From positions 12,554 through 76,553 of the forward strand of contig JBNMHO010000003.1 in NCBI GenBank assembly GCA_050872785.1: a stretch of DNA of 64,000 nucleotides, written 5' to 3'. The translations under genes were made by a program, and so were the position numbers. Positions within the stretch are counted from its first letter, which is position 1, and each line of letters begins with the position of its first letter. The notes beneath the pieces were generated by a model. It worked only from the letters and a program-made list of their open reading frames with translations, did no database searches and had not been told where the DNA came from. This document shows positions 24,356-52,096 of this stretch, in pieces. The DNA is from Clostridia bacterium. Its GTDB lineage: Bacteria; Bacillota; Clostridia; Christensenellales; UBA1242.

Positions 24356-24770
24356 CAACAATCAAAAACAGCGAGCATACAACCGCCAAAACGGACAAAA
24401 CTATGCCAATAATTCCAATGGACTTGCGATTGAGCCTGCATTGCATAACGCCAAATACAAAGCCATAAATTGCAAGGATAATTGAAATTACAATTCCACT
24501 GAAAATATATATAACAAGCATCAAAACATATGACATTCCAATTACGTCAAGTTCCATAAGATTTGCAATCAAGCAACAGCCCGACACAAGCAGGGCAATT
24601 ATGGACAGCATAAGTGACAACTTGCCATATTTTTTGATGTTTTTTCTTTCTTCTTCGGGTTTTTCTTTGTCGGCATTGTAGCCGTTTACAATGTTTCTAA
24701 ACAAGAAAAACCCCGTAACCTTTCCCACCGAGTCCTTTTCATCAAGCCCATTTTTGCTCCTTAACTCCAT
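24342..24770 (-). CDS. Hypothetical membrane protein (3 TM)
   Basis: 142-aa ORF with GGAGG RBS and three hydrophobic helices. Confidence 0.7.
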   Translation of the reverse strand: MELRSKNGLDEKDSVGKVTGFFLFRNIVNGYNADKEKPEEERKNIKKYGKLSLMLSIIALLVSGCCLIANLMELDVIGMSYVLMLVIYIFSGIVISIILAIYGFVFGVMQCRLNRKSIGIIGIVLSVLAVVCSLFLIVAMIV

Positions 24771-24872
24771 TTTCTACCTCCCATTTTATCCATATTTTGT
24801 GCAGAAATTGAACAATTAAAACAAAGTCAATATTTTTATTTAAAACATGTGCAAAAAACACATACCAAAAAC

Positions 24873-24901
24873 TTGACAAGCAGGGAAATATATTTTAGAA
24901 T
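24873..24901 (+). promoter_or_regulatory. sigmaA promoter of poly-G surface gene A
   Basis: TTGACA-17-TAGAAT. Confidence 0.65.
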
Positions 24902-24935
24902 TTTGATATAATAAATTTAAAGGGAGAAAACGAAA

Positions 24936-26535
24936 ATGAGATTTTGGGACAAAATGAGAGTTGGCATGTTGTGCGTAAATTACACGCTTGTCATGGCTCT
25001 TTTGTCCATTATCATCTTCGGAGCAACCCAACAAAGAACTTCCTCAAACGTGTCTGTAAGGTATTCTAGACCCTCATACACCGTGACTTTTGACCCAAAC
25101 GGCGGTGAGTTATCCACAATAGGGGGGGGGGGTATCCTCTAAGCAAGTAACCCTTGGTGACGCCTACGGCGACTTACCATTGCCCACAAAAACGGGTTAT
25201 TCATTTGTCGGTTGGAAATATGGCAATGAACTTGTCACTGCTACAACCAAAAACTTGACCCAAGGCGACCATACCTTGACCGCTTCATGGGGACATTCAG
25301 TTAAATTTGACTATAACAACGGAACCCTATCGAACTCACTTTCTCCAACTTATGCTGGGGAAGTCGGCACAACAACTTCACTTCCAAGCACACTTAACCC
25401 AACCTACTCGGGTCACACCTTTGCGGGCTGGCATTATGGAAAAAATTTAATTGAGCCAACGACATTCACTGGCTCCAATTTTATCGCTCTCGGTCGTGAT
25501 TATATGTACACCGACAAAATTACAATCGTAGTCAGAGCATATATGGACGATTGGACGAAATTTGGCACAAAAAAAACCACCCTTATCAGTTGCACTGAAA
25601 GAGGGGGGTGGTCGTTGAGTAATGAGATTGACTATAATGCTGTCAACTATATTTCATTTGCTATTATGAGTGAAAAGACGAATTTATACATACACACACA
25701 TAGTTCTATAACTTTTTCCCAAATGTCTAGTGGTTATCATACATTTATTGGGACTTTTGATGGCTCATATGCACGCTTATATATTGATGGGATTTTGGTT
25801 GGGACAAGTGCAAATGCTTCAACTACAATAAAATATGATTCATCAAATGGAATATTTGTTGGAGCTGAAGCAGAAGCGAATACAGTTTCTCCTTATGGTT
25901 ATTTTTTTACGGGAAAGGTTGATTATGTATCAATAGAAAATAGCACAATAGACGAAGCAAAAAATATAGGAGCTAACTTAATAACAGAAACCAATTTTGA
26001 TGGGTCAAATTATATTTCACTTGGAAAAGCATATAAGTATAAAAGTAAGATAGCTATAACAGTAATGGCTTCAATGAATGACTGGTCAAAATTCTCTTTA
26101 ATGTCAATGATTTCTTGCACCAATGGCGGTGGCTGGACTATTGAGGCAAAGCAAGACGTAATTTTACTTGCTGCATATGATAATAGTAGCAATGATTACA
26201 ATCGGGTCTCTTCTTCTATAAAGACATCTGAACTAAAAAGTGGATATCATAAATTTGTTGGTATATTCAACGGGGAAAATTTGAAATTATATGTAGATGA
26301 TGAGCTTGTGGCAAATGGGACAAAGTTTGGCTCAAAAAACATTAAATATTATTCCGACAATGGTATATTTGTTGGAGCTGAAGCAGGCAATAATACTTCA
26401 ACCCCAGAAGTAGGTTATTGTCAGTATTTTAAGGGAACAATAAGCCATGTTTTCATTGACAATACGTTTGTGGCAGAAAGAGGTATATATATTTATCAAG
26501 ACTTCGATGTTGTTGCAACGGCAATTTGGAACTGA
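24936..26535 (+). CDS. Frameshifted (phase-variable, OFF) surface protein: signal helix + InlB B-repeats + two LamG-like domains
   Basis: ORFs 24936-25142 and 25180-26535 fuse into 532 aa if G11 becomes G10, restoring TVTFDPNGG...GGGVSSKQVTLGDAYGDLPLPTKTGYSFVGW (B-repeat). Confidence 0.85.
25122..25132 (+). repeat. Poly-G (G11) tract in coding sequence, out of frame
   Basis: ata-GGGGGGGGGGG-tatcctct. Confidence 0.95.
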
Positions 26536-26569
26536 AAATATATTTTAGAACAAATATCCCACAAATCTC

Positions 26570-26598
26570 TTGACAAGTGGGACAAAGTGTGGTAAAGT
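26570..26598 (+). promoter_or_regulatory. sigmaA promoter of rplU operon
   Basis: TTGACA-17-TAAAGT with extended TG. Confidence 0.7.
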
Positions 26599-26599
26599 G

Positions 26600-26660
26600 G
26601 CGGTATCCGCATGGAAAAGGTTTAAAAGTGGGCTTTTGGCTTCACCTTAACAGCGAGTTT
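26600..26660 (+). ncRNA. Probable L21 ribosomal-protein leader
   Basis: ccgca...aagg...cctt...gcgagt structured 5' UTR directly upstream of rplU. Confidence 0.55.
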
Positions 26661-26682
26661 GGAGGATAAGGAGGAAAACAAA

Positions 26683-26994
26683 ATGTATGCTATCGTTCTT
26701 TCTGGCGGAAAGCAATATAAGGCAGAAGAAGGCAAGTTTATTGATGTTGAGAAACTTGACGGAAATGTTGGAGATAAAGTAAATCTCGATGTGCTTTGCG
26801 TGTCAGACGAAAAAGGTCTTGAAACAGGCAAACCTGTTTTGAGCAAGGTTAAGTGTGAAGCAGAAATCATTCTTCAAGGAAAACAAGACAAAATCATCGT
26901 TTTCAAATACAAAGCAAAGAAGAATGAAAGAAAGAAACAAGGTCACAGACAACCTTTCACCAGAGTTAAAATATTGTCGATAAAGAGAGTTTAA
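26683..26994 (+). CDS. rplU: 50S ribosomal protein L21
   Basis: MYAIVLSGGKQYK...KQGHRQPFT. Confidence 0.98.
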   Translation: MYAIVLSGGKQYKAEEGKFIDVEKLDGNVGDKVNLDVLCVSDEKGLETGKPVLSKVKCEAEIILQGKQDKIIVFKYKAKKNERKKQGHRQPFTRVKILSIKRV

Positions 26995-26999
26995 TTTTT

Positions 27000-27329
27000 A
27001 TGACAAAAATTACGGTCACTAAAAAAAATGATGAAATCGTGGAACTGGAATGTGACGGACACACCGATTATGGCGTGAACGGCGAAGACATTGTGTGCAG
27101 TGCATTGTCAAGCATTGTCCAAACAGCTGTTTTGGGGCTTATGATGGTCGCTGGCATAAATGTTTCACTGAAAAGGGACGAAAATAGGGGTTATCTTAAA
27201 CTCGTTCTCCCACAAAACATTTCGCAAGAAGCAAGACACGATGCAAATGTAATCTTAAACACAATGATGTGTGGAATAAGTGACCTGAGGGAAGGTTTTT
27301 CAGATTTTATAGAACTGGAGGTTAAGTAA
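27000..27329 (+). CDS. prp: Ribosomal-processing cysteine protease Prp (YsxB)
   Basis: GH...[10 protein letters not shown] motif, between rplU and rpmA. Confidence 0.93.
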
Positions 27330-27330
27330 G

Positions 27331-27624
27331 ATGTTTATTCAGTTGCAATTGTTCGCTCACAAAAAGGGCGGTGGTAGCACAAAGAACGGACGTGACAGTC
27401 AAGCCAAAAGACTTGGCGTTAAATGTGGTGACGGTCAACACGTTCTTGCTGGCAATATTATTGTTCGCCAACGTGGCACAAAATTTTACCCAGGCGACAA
27501 TGTAGGTCTTGGAAAGGACTACACATTGTTTGCACTTCGTGACGGAAAGGTGAAATTTATCACAAAACATGGCGACAAAAAATATGTCACAGTGGTTGAA
27601 GAAACTGCAAAGAAAGCAAAATAA
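27331..27624 (+). CDS. rpmA: 50S ribosomal protein L27 with Prp-cleaved N-terminal extension
   Basis: [23 protein letters not shown]. Confidence 0.98.
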
Positions 27625-27628
27625 ATTG

Positions 27629-27656
27629 AAAATTCCTCGAAATGGGGAATTTTTTT
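27629..27656 (+). terminator. Intrinsic terminator after rpmA
   Basis: aaaattcctc-gaaat-ggggaattttttt. Confidence 0.75.
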
Positions 27657-27657
27657 C

Positions 27658-27686
27658 TTGACAAAATTTATCATATATCCTACACT
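27658..27686 (+). promoter_or_regulatory. sigmaA promoter of poly-G surface gene B
   Basis: TTGACA-17-TACACT. Confidence 0.6.
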
Positions 27687-27721
27687 TTTTGAGAATAATA
27701 AAAATATGGAGGAATTTTAAA

Positions 27722-28610
27722 ATGACTAAAAGGGAACGATTTGTTTTGTGGCTCAATAGGTTTTATCACAAGCAAAATAAGATTACAATTTGTGTCTTAT
27801 ACACCCTCCTTATGGCTATCCTTGGTGTCATTATTTATGGGGCAACTCATCAAAGTTCCTCAAGCAATGTTTCAGTAAAATATACAGTCCCATACTACAC
27901 AATTACCTTCGACCCAAACGGCGGAACCCTCGAAAATGCAGGGGGGGGGGGTATTCTCAAAGCAAGTAAAACTTGGTGACACTTACGGCGATTTGCCACT
28001 GCCAAGCAGACCGGGTTATAGCTTCAACGGTTGGTATGAAGAAGCCCTTGTAACATCAGAATCAGTCCTTTCCACCCCATGCGACAAAACCCTAATCGCC
28101 GAATGGAATGATGGTATACCAGCAGATATGAGAAATTGGGAATTTATAACACCGCCTTATGAAATAGACTTTGCCAATTCGTTTACAAATTGGAATGTCA
28201 GCAATGGGGAAAATAAGTTCGATTTTTGTGGAGTAGGTGGGAGTGAAGTTAAATATACTGCACTTAATCTTGAAAAAAATAAAACATATTCAGTAGTTTT
28301 TGATTATGTTTTGCCAAATTTTACTTATACTGATGCAAACGGGAATTTCCGAGATAAAATGTATTCATATATTGTCAGCATTGATCCTGAAGCAAATTTA
28401 TTATATAATATGACGGATAGGATAGAAACAGTTGTTTCGATTTACACTTTAAATTCAAATACAGACGGGAAAGCCGTCCTATCTTTTACTGCAAGGGAAA
28501 CGGCAAAATATTATCTTGTGGTGAATTTTGGTTATTTGAATGACAATATAACTTATCACTTTGAATTTAATAATTTCACTCTATACACACACCAATGCAC
28601 ATTTGGCTGA
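27722..28610 (+). CDS. Frameshifted (phase-variable, OFF) surface protein: signal helix + InlB B-repeat + CBM-like beta-sandwich
   Basis: ORFs 27722-27979 and 27936-28610 fuse into 295 aa if G11 becomes G10 (TITFDPNGG...GGGVFSKQVKLGDTYGDLPLPSRPGYSFNGWY); paralogous N-terminus to 24936. Confidence 0.85.
27941..27951 (+). repeat. Poly-G (G11) tract in coding sequence, out of frame
   Basis: gca-GGGGGGGGGGG-tattctca. Confidence 0.95.
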
Positions 28611-28699
28611 GTGGTGGGTAGTCTAAATGGTGGGGAAGAAAAATATAAATAATATAATAGGTTTTGGCTTGTTATATTATTTTTTTTGCTGGGGGGATA

Positions 28700-28963
28700 A
28701 TGGTTTCGTTTTTGGAGGAGATTGCAAAGGTTTCGGGGGTTGATCCAAGTGTTGTCGTTGGAAGTAGCAGAGTGTTATATCTTGGTGGCAAGGTTGTTAT
28801 GATAGAAGGCAAGACTAAGTTGGTTGAGATGTCAGACGAACTTGTAAAGGTTAAACTTAAGCGGGGCATGGCGGTTGTTAGTGGCAAAAACTTGAAACTT
28901 AAAAACCTTAATCTTGAAAGTGTTATGATAGTTGGGGACATTGCAGAATTTCAGATTTGTTAA
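28700..28963 (+). CDS. yqfC: YabP/YqfC-family sporulation protein
   Basis: VMIEG...VSGKNLKLKNL...IVGDI pattern, upstream of yqfD. Confidence 0.75.
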   Translation: MVSFLEEIAKVSGVDPSVVVGSSRVLYLGGKVVMIEGKTKLVEMSDELVKVKLKRGMAVVSGKNLKLKNLNLESVMIVGDIAEFQIC

Positions 28964-50466: not shown

Positions 50467-50493
50467 TTGACAATTCGACATAAATCTTATAAT
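50467..50493 (+). promoter_or_regulatory. Possible sigmaA promoter of gene 50546
   Basis: TTGACA followed by TATAAT (15-nt spacer, suboptimal). Confidence 0.4.
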
Positions 50494-50545
50494 CTATTGT
50501 ATATTTCAATGTGTAAATCAAAAGACTAAGGATAGGAGAGAAAGG

Positions 50546-52096
50546 TTGAAAAAGAAGATTTTTTCGTTGATACTCACAGCAGTTCTTATTGTGACAGCCT
50601 CTGTCGCAATGGTCTTTTATGCTTTGGCTGCAACCCAAATCAACCTAAAATCTACCATTGAAGTTGGTTATACTGCAGCACCAAATGTCGTCTGCGAAGC
50701 CAGTGCAACCTATCAACTGGAAAAAGATGCCTCGGCAACTGCCTTTACTTCTGGTGGACAAAGTTTCGCTTACATAGACTCTCAAACAACAAAAACACTC
50801 ACCGCCAGCAACTCTGCCTTGGTGCTTAATGACATGACCAGTTCATATGTCATATTCACATTCACATTTAAGAACAAAAACTTAATGTCAACTTTCAATC
50901 TTAACATCAAACTTACAGACAATTCACTCTGCTCAAATATGACAAGAAAATATTATTTTGGCTCACTTTCTTCATCAAACCTTGCCAATCTCGCCAGCCA
51001 AATAAAATCTAACGGCGTTGACTACTCCGCACTTTCAAGCCAAACCTTAACTCTGGGCTATCAAGAAACTGGCAAAGTCTATATGCTTGTGGAAATCATT
51101 TCTGGCCTTAAGGGAAGTTACACCGCAAACACCGCAAATGGCTTCAAATTTACGCTTACAACCACCACGGGGGGGGGGGTAGCCTTTCTTAGCAGTGACT
51201 GGAAAGACCGCCTTAACATAGGTATAGAAAATATAGAAGACAACAATGTAACAACCCTTATTTTTACAAAAGACTCAGCCCAAACAAGCGGACTTTCAAA
51301 TAGCAAGTCAGTTGGCACAAACAGTGCAACAAGCACTTCTGCCTACACAACAGCCCCAGGAATTTCTGATGTTACAGCCTACTGGAATAGCAACAAGTCA
51401 AAAATTGTTATTTATTCACCAAACACCATTTATGCCCCACAGAGCTGCTATCAATTGTTTGATCTTTGTGAAAAAATGACAACCATAGATTTATCCAACT
51501 TTAATACTAGCATTGTGACCGATATGTTTTGTATGTTTTCTGGCTGTAAATCTCTAATAAACCTAGATTTAAGCAATTTTAACACCAGCAATGTGACGAA
51601 TATGTGTGAAATGTTCTTGCGTTGTTCTGGACTAACCAGTCTAAACTTAAGCAATATTGATACAAGCAAAGTGACGGATATGGAGGGTATGTTCTATAAT
51701 TGTTCTGGGTTAACCAGTCTAAACCTAAGCAATATTGATACAAGCAAAGTGACGGATATGGGGATTATGTTCAGCGGTTGTTCTGGGCTAACTAGTCTAA
51801 ACCTTGGCAACTTTAACATGCAGGCCTGCACTAATTTTTATTACATGTTTGATGATTGCTCCGCCCTTAATTCAATAACTCTGCCATACAACTTGCAAAG
51901 CGGAAAGACAATAGACCTGCCAAGTCTAGATAGTGGATATTATTACACTGCCGATACTTCTGACATTTCCGTAGGTGCTTATTCTTTTACAAAAATTGGA
52001 ACGGAAACTAATCTCGCAAATAATGTTATAGCTTGTTCAACAGCAAGCAAAAAAGTAGAGGTGTGGAAAAACTCTGGTACTCCTGATATAACCTAA
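50546..52096 (+). CDS. Surface protein: ~210-aa N-domain + in-frame poly-G hinge + BspA/DUF285-like LRR repeats (phase ON)
   Basis: Signal helix; TTTGGGV encoded by G11; 26-aa repeats LxxLNLSNxxTSxVTxMxxMFxxC. Confidence 0.85.
   Translation: MKKKIFSLILTAVLIVTASVAMVFYALAATQINLKSTIEVGYTAAPNVVCEASATYQLEKDASATAFTSGGQSFAYIDSQTTKTLTASNSALVLNDMTSSYVIFTFTFKNKNLMSTFNLNIKLTDNSLCSNMTRKYYFGSLSSSNLANLASQIKSNGVDYSALSSQTLTLGYQETGKVYMLVEIISGLKGSYTANTANGFKFTLTTTTGGGVAFLSSDWKDRLNIGIENIEDNNVTTLIFTKDSAQTSGLSNSKSVGTNSATSTSAYTTAPGISDVTAYWNSNKSKIVIYSPNTIYAPQSCYQLFDLCEKMTTIDLSNFNTSIVTDMFCMFSGCKSLINLDLSNFNTSNVTNMCEMFLRCSGLTSLNLSNIDTSKVTDMEGMFYNCSGLTSLNLSNIDTSKVTDMGIMFSGCSGLTSLNLGNFNMQACTNFYYMFDDCSALNSITLPYNLQSGKTIDLPSLDSGYYYTADTSDISVGAYSFTKIGTETNLANNVIACSTASKKVEVWKNSGTPDIT
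51169..51179 (+). repeat. Poly-G (G11) tract in coding sequence, in frame
   Basis: accaccac-GGGGGGGGGGG-tagcc. Confidence 0.95.
51467..51880 (+). repeat. 78-bp tandem coding repeats (about 5 LRR units)
   Basis: tgttctgg units at 51623, 51701, 51779 exactly 78 bp apart with near-identical framework. Confidence 0.85.

Follow-up and report, generated by a model that had tools for sequence, protein, structure and literature searches.

We analysed a 64,000-nucleotide stretch of the forward strand of contig JBNMHO010000003.1 (assembly GCA_050872785.1, positions 12,554 to 76,553), hereafter the window, from an uncultured gut member of the Christensenellales. The genome assembly comprises 1,110,236 bases in 37 contigs (37.7% GC, 98.5% complete). 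The gene under study, gene A, is a candidate phase-variable surface-protein gene that carries 11 consecutive G (G11), without interruption, at 25122-25132. The frame that opens at the ATG at 24936 is closed by a stop codon at 25140-25142 and encodes 68 amino acids (aa) ending in IGGGGIL. In the +1 frame, no stop occurs between 25123 and the stop codon at 26533-26535, a span of 470 codons that starts GGGVSSKQVTLGDAYGDLPLPTKTGYSFVGW / GGGVSSKQVTLGD. With one G less or two G more, 62 and 470 codons form a single frame of 532 aa (Table 1).

Each half of gene A was aligned separately to an intact paralog of the same genome on contig C17, which has G10 and encodes 558 aa counted from its MTKYERF start. 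We observed that the upstream piece aligned to C17 residues 13-76 (64% identity), and that the downstream piece aligned end to end to residues 74-555 (54% identity, E = 2e-177). The two alignments joined at the C17 Gly triplet 74-76, with the pieces colinear, and the C-terminal sequence ...DFDVVATA(I/M)WN was common to both proteins. Judged by this colinearity with an intact paralog, gene A is one gene broken by its tract. A separate gene starting from TTG 25180 was rejected because the preceding 20 bases contain no Shine-Dalgarno-like stretch, and because its product would begin within the repeat and would have no membrane leader.

The downstream piece matched Flg_new (PF09479) at 49.8 bits (cut-off 27) in two stretches, the better of which covered profile positions 9-64 of 65, and TIGR02543 at 25.4 bits (cut-off 20.95). 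It also matched Laminin_G_3 (PF13385) in two stretches (48.5 bits, cut-off 27.6) and Laminin_G_2 (PF02210; 27.4 bits, cut-off 22.9). In the intact C17 protein, Gly triplet 74-76 lies within one Flg_new match (profile 1-64, residues 59-127), which places the tract inside the first B-repeat. With scores above the curated cut-offs, gene A falls by profile comparison among the Listeria-Bacteroides repeat proteins (PF09479; TIGR02543). It likewise belongs to the LamG/concanavalin-A-like lectin superfamily, for which the Pfam cut-offs were passed and the C17 jelly-roll model was confident. The initial annotation had described a single B-repeat/LamG protein of 532 aa, interrupted by one extra G inside its first B-repeat, with a G11 product that stops after 68 aa at IGGGGIL and no second lesion in the rest of the gene. 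All of this was borne out, by the colinearity with C17 over the full length of the downstream piece and by the Flg_new matches on that piece and across the triplet of C17.

The AlphaFold model of C17 had a mean predicted local distance difference test score (pLDDT) of 66.5 and was confident only in its two LamG-like domains (about 85-92 in the first LamG region). Residues 40-176 scored below 50, and with the B-repeat part in this range the model was uninformative on the position of the Gly triplet. A fold search returned laminin LG4-5 pairs as top PDB matches (E = 7.6e-11), with whole-model template modelling scores of only 0.2-0.3. Clostridial neurotoxin binding domains also appeared among the fold matches; they ranked under the laminin LG pairs and were set aside as reflecting the generic concanavalin-A-like jelly-roll.

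The leader of gene A is predicted to be an N-terminal membrane anchor or signal, because its hydrophobic residues 9-27 follow Arg/Lys residues and the C-terminus, which reads ...VATAIWN, contains no LPXTG. The stretch of the C17 model that matches this hydrophobic segment is a helix (residues 20-43). The Pfam scan found no leucine-rich repeat (LRR) family in gene A. We rejected an internalin identity of the InlA/InlB type, given that gene A has neither LRR nor LPXTG and has an N-terminal hydrophobic anchor instead. The likeliest role, as modelled from these domains, is that of a surface adhesin or lectin that would bind glycans or proteins, with the Flg_new repeats as a stalk.

Long G/C runs were in excess in the window and in the whole genome. 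We found 12 G8 matches in the window, all inside three G11 tracts, and 100 shuffles gave a mean of 0.43, none reaching 12. Run lengths in the genome were bimodal: 25 G/C runs had length 6, a single run had length 7, and 24 fell at lengths 8-12 (G8 once, length 9 twice, 10 six times, 11 ten times and 12 five times), a tract density of ~22 per Mb. Nineteen of the 24 long runs occupy one homologous codon, within the first Flg_new repeat, in members of one paralog family. The family module consists of a leader, the hydrophobic segment, a YTVTFD motif and the tract, followed by ...KLGD.YGDLP.PTR.GY.F.GW. GGG is the rarest Gly codon in this genome (14.4% of 17,508 Gly codons in open reading frames (ORFs) of at least 250 codons). 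Gene A had initially been treated as a single-gene case; its split stood, and what that account missed was the wider picture of 19 paralogs with a tract at the same codon and of tracts in four other species.

The 19 family tracts were in mixed states. Five were in frame (C4:11652, C11, C17, C20 and C37), the call for C37 being weak with just 8 codons to the contig end. The other 14 were out of frame, and wherever no contig end cuts the copy, a long open frame of 192-618 codons follows the tract. All three leader-bearing copies of this genome in which the tract is absent (...NGGSC...) were open (344, 372 and 452 codons). Beyond the common 5' module the paralogs diverge, and their C-terminal domains are unrelated. 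A Pfam scan of 15 of the 19 members (genes A and B were scanned separately, and the C32 and C37 stubs were left out) identified two LamG domains in gene A and C17, DUF285 with LRR_5 in C2:8935 and a weak CBM_4_9 match in C5; the remaining scanned paralogs had extra Flg_new repeats or no known family. For the 16 of 19 members that passed the filter, median pairwise nucleotide identity was 71% (maximum 94%) over the 210 bases before the tract and 58% over 600 bases starting 90 bases after it.

We searched other genomes for at least nine G followed by TATYYYC, using the reversed pattern as a control. Besides this genome, 4 of the 24 other sampled genomes of the genus had the tract pattern. All 16 genomes from other families of the order lacked it, and the reversed pattern gave no match anywhere. 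These four other species held 23 tracts of G9-G14, of which 6 were in frame (L026 uncertain, with a masked stretch) and 17 out of frame (9 need one G fewer and 8 one more). Among further copies, L084 and L096 were out of frame and L092 and L101 in frame. The syntenic ortholog of gene A in genome G008 has G12, out of frame, compared with G11 here. Within the region upstream of that ortholog (locus L052, 1309-1317), we also saw a C9 homopolymer, which reads G9 on the coding strand, in the ribosome-binding region of a minus-strand membrane-protein gene; the homologous positions of our window (~24768-24785) have an interrupted cctccc instead.

Of 28 genomes of the genus, 6 contained the family when searched at the protein level with the 105-residue N-terminal module. 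The sixth species (G006) had no pattern match, and its 5 family copies carry interrupted runs such as G5-A-G4 and G6-T-G-C-GG. All 5 have intact open frames (366-773 codons). Counted together, 11 of 42 tract-bearing copies were in frame versus 8 of 8 copies with no run, which is a description and not a test, the copies being kin. Frame disruption accompanied the uninterrupted run, and frames were intact wherever the run was interrupted.

These split frames would be artefacts if the homopolymers had been miscounted, that is, if the true tract were G10, gene A were intact like most paralogs and the frameshifts were sequencing or assembly errors. Short-read platforms are prone to errors in long G runs; in this genome, one G fewer is exactly what 11 of the 14 out-of-frame family members need; and many contigs end at or near tracts. 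However, the required corrections in the four other species, assembled by other projects, have no such one-sided bias, protein calls in further samples begin in the shifted frame, and consensus error at ~70% of tracts would be unusual. We also examined sequencing runs X1-X3 and X4 as Logan contigs. Contigs of run X2 cross the gene A tract as G11 with no gap, and the gene B tract reads G11 in contigs from three runs. The G11 length is not the product of one assembler, with the caveat that the runs may themselves come from the source samples. We consider a miscount very unlikely.

The Logan contigs that break at 25130-25133 are explained by paralogs with common flanks, not by a branch within the tract: C21 departs from gene A only at 25100 and further upstream, and C21 and C33 are identical to it downstream to 25161. 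No allelic contigs differing only in tract length were present in the assembly. The only contig pair with at least 93% identity over at least 150 bases (C4:84347 and C37, 93%) does not represent alleles. As a separate observation, a relative in run X4 covers the flanking housekeeping genes (~90-95% likeness) and leaves the bodies at 25083-26204 and 27701-28448 uncovered. Other strains may have different cargo domains at genes A and B, but absent coverage is no proof of this by itself.

We next consider selection on the downstream frame. Compared with its syntenic ortholog in G008, the gene A body after its first 40 codons had a synonymous rate (dS) of 0.241 and a nonsynonymous rate (dN) of 0.030 (dN/dS 0.126, 428 codons). 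For the neighbouring genes in the same two genomes, dN/dS was 0.023 (aldolase), 0.104 (Prp) and about 0 (L21 and L27). A metagenome scan gave one close locus, L066, at 93% protein identity and apparently of the same species as G008; its contig breaks off within the tract, and its dN/dS against gene A was 0.159 over 469 codons. By these substitution rates, purifying selection acts on gene A downstream of the tract.

An alternative in which gene A is a recently inactivated pseudogene of a shrinking genome, with the run as a mere break point, would suit the small genome (1.11 Mb, 98.5% complete), and no sample seen had gene A or an ortholog of it in frame. A dead gene would be expected to approach a dN/dS of 1 and gather stops. 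We observed instead 470 codons with neither a stop nor a second frameshift, and a dN/dS of 0.126 at a dS of 0.24 against an ortholog that is itself out of frame. The 14 out-of-frame paralogs behave likewise, with long open frames wherever uncut by a contig end. Decay is also at odds with the intact frames of all copies whose run is interrupted or absent. Uninterrupted tracts are also kept in five species as GGG-GGG-GGG-G despite the use of the rarest Gly codon, which argues that the run itself is maintained. Decay is extremely improbable on this evidence, and the initial preference for a reversible switch over decay, for which dN/dS of the downstream frame had been proposed as the check, gained support from it.

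It is also conceivable that the DNA is stably out of frame and that full-length protein arises by recoding, through RNA-polymerase slippage or ribosomal frameshifting. Homopolymers can cause transcriptional and tRNA slippage, and most copies, including all close gene A relatives seen, are out of frame yet conserved. Against this, tract lengths (G9-G14) and the required shift (-1 or +1) vary and about a quarter of copies are in frame, which leaves no fixed geometry. No Rfam frameshift element or RNA family was found near the tract, with only weak matches elsewhere, and transcriptional slippage is best documented for A/T runs. A programmed frameshift site was rejected on the same grounds of variable length and shift among copies and no RNA family at the tract. 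Recoding as the full explanation appears unlikely; it probably contributes some leaky expression, which would be compatible with switching at the DNA level.

Overall, our data suggest that gene A is quite probably a phase-variable contingency gene that switches by slipped-strand mispairing and is OFF in the consensus. The poly-G run in the Gly-Gly-Gly codons of the first repeat would gain or lose G by mispairing during replication, and each change of one G would move gene A in or out of frame. G10 or G13 would be ON. At the consensus G11, the gene would be OFF and just the 68-aa leader fragment would be made. The ON product would place two Flg_new repeats and two LamG/concanavalin-A-like domains at the surface behind an N-terminal anchor. 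With 19 paralogs that share the leader and half-repeat and differ in unrelated C-termini, a population could present many combinations of surface proteins. Gene A has the attributes of a simple sequence repeat contingency locus: an uninterrupted, slippable repeat near its 5' end, a frame that changes with one repeat unit, and over-representation of such tracts. Switching within the population, its rate, and the surface exposure and ligand of the product are what we infer from sequence.

Several observations weigh against this proposal. All close relatives of gene A look OFF: the copies in this genome and in G008 are out of frame, and the database proteins P0001, P0002, P0003 and P0005 start in the alternative frame just before the Gly run. 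Among this genome, G008 and the database proteins, gene A itself was never seen in an ON form. The syntenic ortholog of gene B in G008 is G11 and out of frame, the same length as here. MutS and MutL are both encoded in this genome. Campylobacter is not known to have MutS and MutL, in contrast to the present host, an uncultured member of the Bacillota known from sequence, and given both proteins switching rates here may be lower than in Campylobacter. Each run also yielded one contig with one G fewer at 25122 (depth 20.1, 4.68 and 7.1), which is ambiguous as an allele: it could belong to the G10 paralogs C17 or C37, whose flanks are near-identical. Because the contig breaks and this G10 contig are attributable to paralogs, the contigs give no evidence either way on length heterogeneity.

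The sequence around the tract appeared mosaic. The gene A leader (24936-25097) was closest to C2:57794, C2:121799 and C14 (85-90% identity, with alignments ending at ~25097), and the stretch around the tract (25071-25217) was closest to C33, C37 and C27 (84-88%). The G008 ortholog has another tract context (...FDPA-Gn-VSPSQ...). Relative to that ortholog, dS was 1.4 in the first 40 codons after the tract versus 0.24 beyond. The split affinities of leader and tract, the other context in G008 and the difference in dS together point to gene conversion among paralogs around the tract. A more tentative, and on balance doubtful, extension is that the unit of variation is a portable switch cassette (promoter, anchor leader and half B-repeat) spread by gene conversion onto ~19 genes; its mosaic nature is supported by the same match of leader and tract stretch to different paralog subgroups and by the same dS contrast. 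Under such a scheme, the conserved Gly-Gly motif of the B-repeat would have been turned into a poly-G run, and the cargo would be LamG, DUF285/LRR, CBM-like and unknown folds. Further tracts lie in a DUF285 protein, a glycosyltransferase-like gene and three leader-ORF/terminator units in front of genes for surface proteins. The whole could be one of the densest known phase-variable gene sets, despite intact mismatch repair, and its origin would fall within the genus, given that the runs of the sister species G006 are interrupted and stable.

The features of gene A and of its neighbouring paralog are collected in Table 1. The promoter-like site of gene A was joint best among 15 such sites in 24600-28800; the total in that interval was not above shuffles, and the gene A site is a consensus match only.

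Table 1. Coordinates of gene A features and of gene B in the window
Feature	Coordinates	Strand	Basis or remark
Promoter-like site TTGACA, 17-base spacer, TAGAAT	24873..24901	+	11/12 matches
Ribosome-binding site AAGGGAG	24920..24926	+	9 bases before ATG 24936, read from sequence
OFF-state frame, leader and start of B-repeat 1	24936..25142	+	68 aa, C-terminal IGGGGIL
Hydrophobic segment, residues 9-27, Arg/Lys before	24960..25016	+	mean Kyte-Doolittle 2.25 over 19 residues
First Flg_new (Listeria-Bacteroides) repeat, cut by tract	25077..25284	+	downstream residues 2-54 = profile 9-64; start from YTVTFD motif
G11 homopolymer, proposed switch	25122-25132	+	codons 63-66 of 532-codon gene; in frame at G10 or G13
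Downstream frame, 470 codons and stop, no further lesion	25123..26535	+	open frame, paralog alignment, dN/dS 0.126-0.159
Second Flg_new repeat, approximate limits	25294..25443	+	limits read from sequence (KFDYNNG...FAGWHYG)
First LamG/concanavalin-A-like domain	25471..25953	+	Laminin_G_3, downstream residues 117-277, E 1.3e-12
Second LamG-like domain	26179..26463	+	Laminin_G_2, downstream residues 353-447, and second Laminin_G_3 stretch
Gene B, gene A paralog, similar leader and repeat	27722..28610	+	G11 27941-27951, out of frame

The upstream frame of gene B stops at 27977-27979, and its downstream frame continues to 28610. Genes A and B are separated by the L21, Prp and L27 genes. Just upstream of these, the stretch 26608-26658 weakly resembles the leader of ribosomal protein L21 (RF00559), with a score of 26.1 bits that falls short of the gathering threshold of 36 (E = 0.041). 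The third G11 tract of the window (51169-51179) is in frame within a DUF285/BspA-type LRR protein (open frame 50471-52096). It lies between the N-terminal ~230 residues and the LRR part, and a one-base change there would remove the LRR part.

Other tracts of the genome stand in different settings. A G8 at C18:5317-5324 is in frame near the start (~residue 12) of a 370-codon ORF that starts MKILFQHRHMVSGGVEKAL, which we take from its sequence to resemble a glycosyltransferase. Three tracts belong to another type of unit, at C3:79479-80197 (L018, G12, just past the end of the window), C4:61863-62467 (L019, G9) and C24:598-1213 (L020, G11). Each unit consists, in this order, of a TTGACAA box, a ribosome-binding site, a tiny ORF in which the run comes after MTYKNAH...CNI, a hairpin with a T run behind it and the ATG of a surface protein that carries a signal peptide. 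The hairpin stems vary by copy (CATGCC/GGCATG versus CTCGT/ACGAG). In the C3 unit, one frame stops 8 codons past the run and another crosses the hairpin and ends at a TGA that overlaps the next ATG. From this arrangement, the three units may be phase-variable leader-peptide attenuators.

Homopolymer phase variation is textbook knowledge in mucosal pathogens and is little documented in uncultured gut Clostridia commensals. Among the matches listed (best 15 per search, of up to 201), we found no literature on homopolymer switching in Christensenellales and none linking a homopolymer switch to Listeria-Bacteroides-repeat proteins. The mechanism, that of a simple-sequence contingency locus, is already known; this genus-restricted, family-wide set is not described in those matches. 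If the switching is real, a lineage with a reduced genome devotes ~19 genes to stochastic surface variation, which would bear on escape from phage or host antibody and on attachment to partners or mucus. For annotation, gene callers split or truncate the tract genes, and assemblies break at the common cassette. For experimental work, a natural control is available in the sister species whose tracts are interrupted.

The proposed system resembles Neisseria opa in being an adhesin multigene family with a simple repeat in the 5' leader-coding part, independent switching and recombination among copies. The opa repeat is a pentamer in the signal-peptide region of outer-membrane beta-barrels, whereas here a homopolymer lies within the first extracellular repeat domain and the copies have mutually unrelated C-terminal domains. 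The poly-G/C contingency loci of Campylobacter jejuni are intragenic G/C homopolymers in genes for surface structures (PMC8355987, PMC8437040). They share with the present set runs of ~8-13 bases in many surface genes, a one-base frame switch and a comparable density. Most tracts here, unlike in Campylobacter, lie at one homologous codon of one paralog family and not in unrelated genes. In Listeria monocytogenes, a 5' poly(A) tract in inlA undergoes reversible high-frequency frameshifting that yields a very short product (PMC2831843). Gene A likewise has a homopolymer near the 5' end of a surface gene from the B-repeat world, with a frameshift that gives a very short product. The Listeria case differs in being a single gene with poly(A), and gene A has neither LRR nor LPXTG. 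SZO08560 of Streptococcus zooepidemicus, a surface protein with Listeria-Bacteroides repeats, is controlled by an invertible promoter (PMC2654543). Both are PF09479-repeat surface proteins with proposed on/off phase variation; the streptococcal switch is a recombinase-mediated promoter inversion at a single LPXTG-anchored gene, whereas the switch proposed here would act through a simple-sequence repeat.

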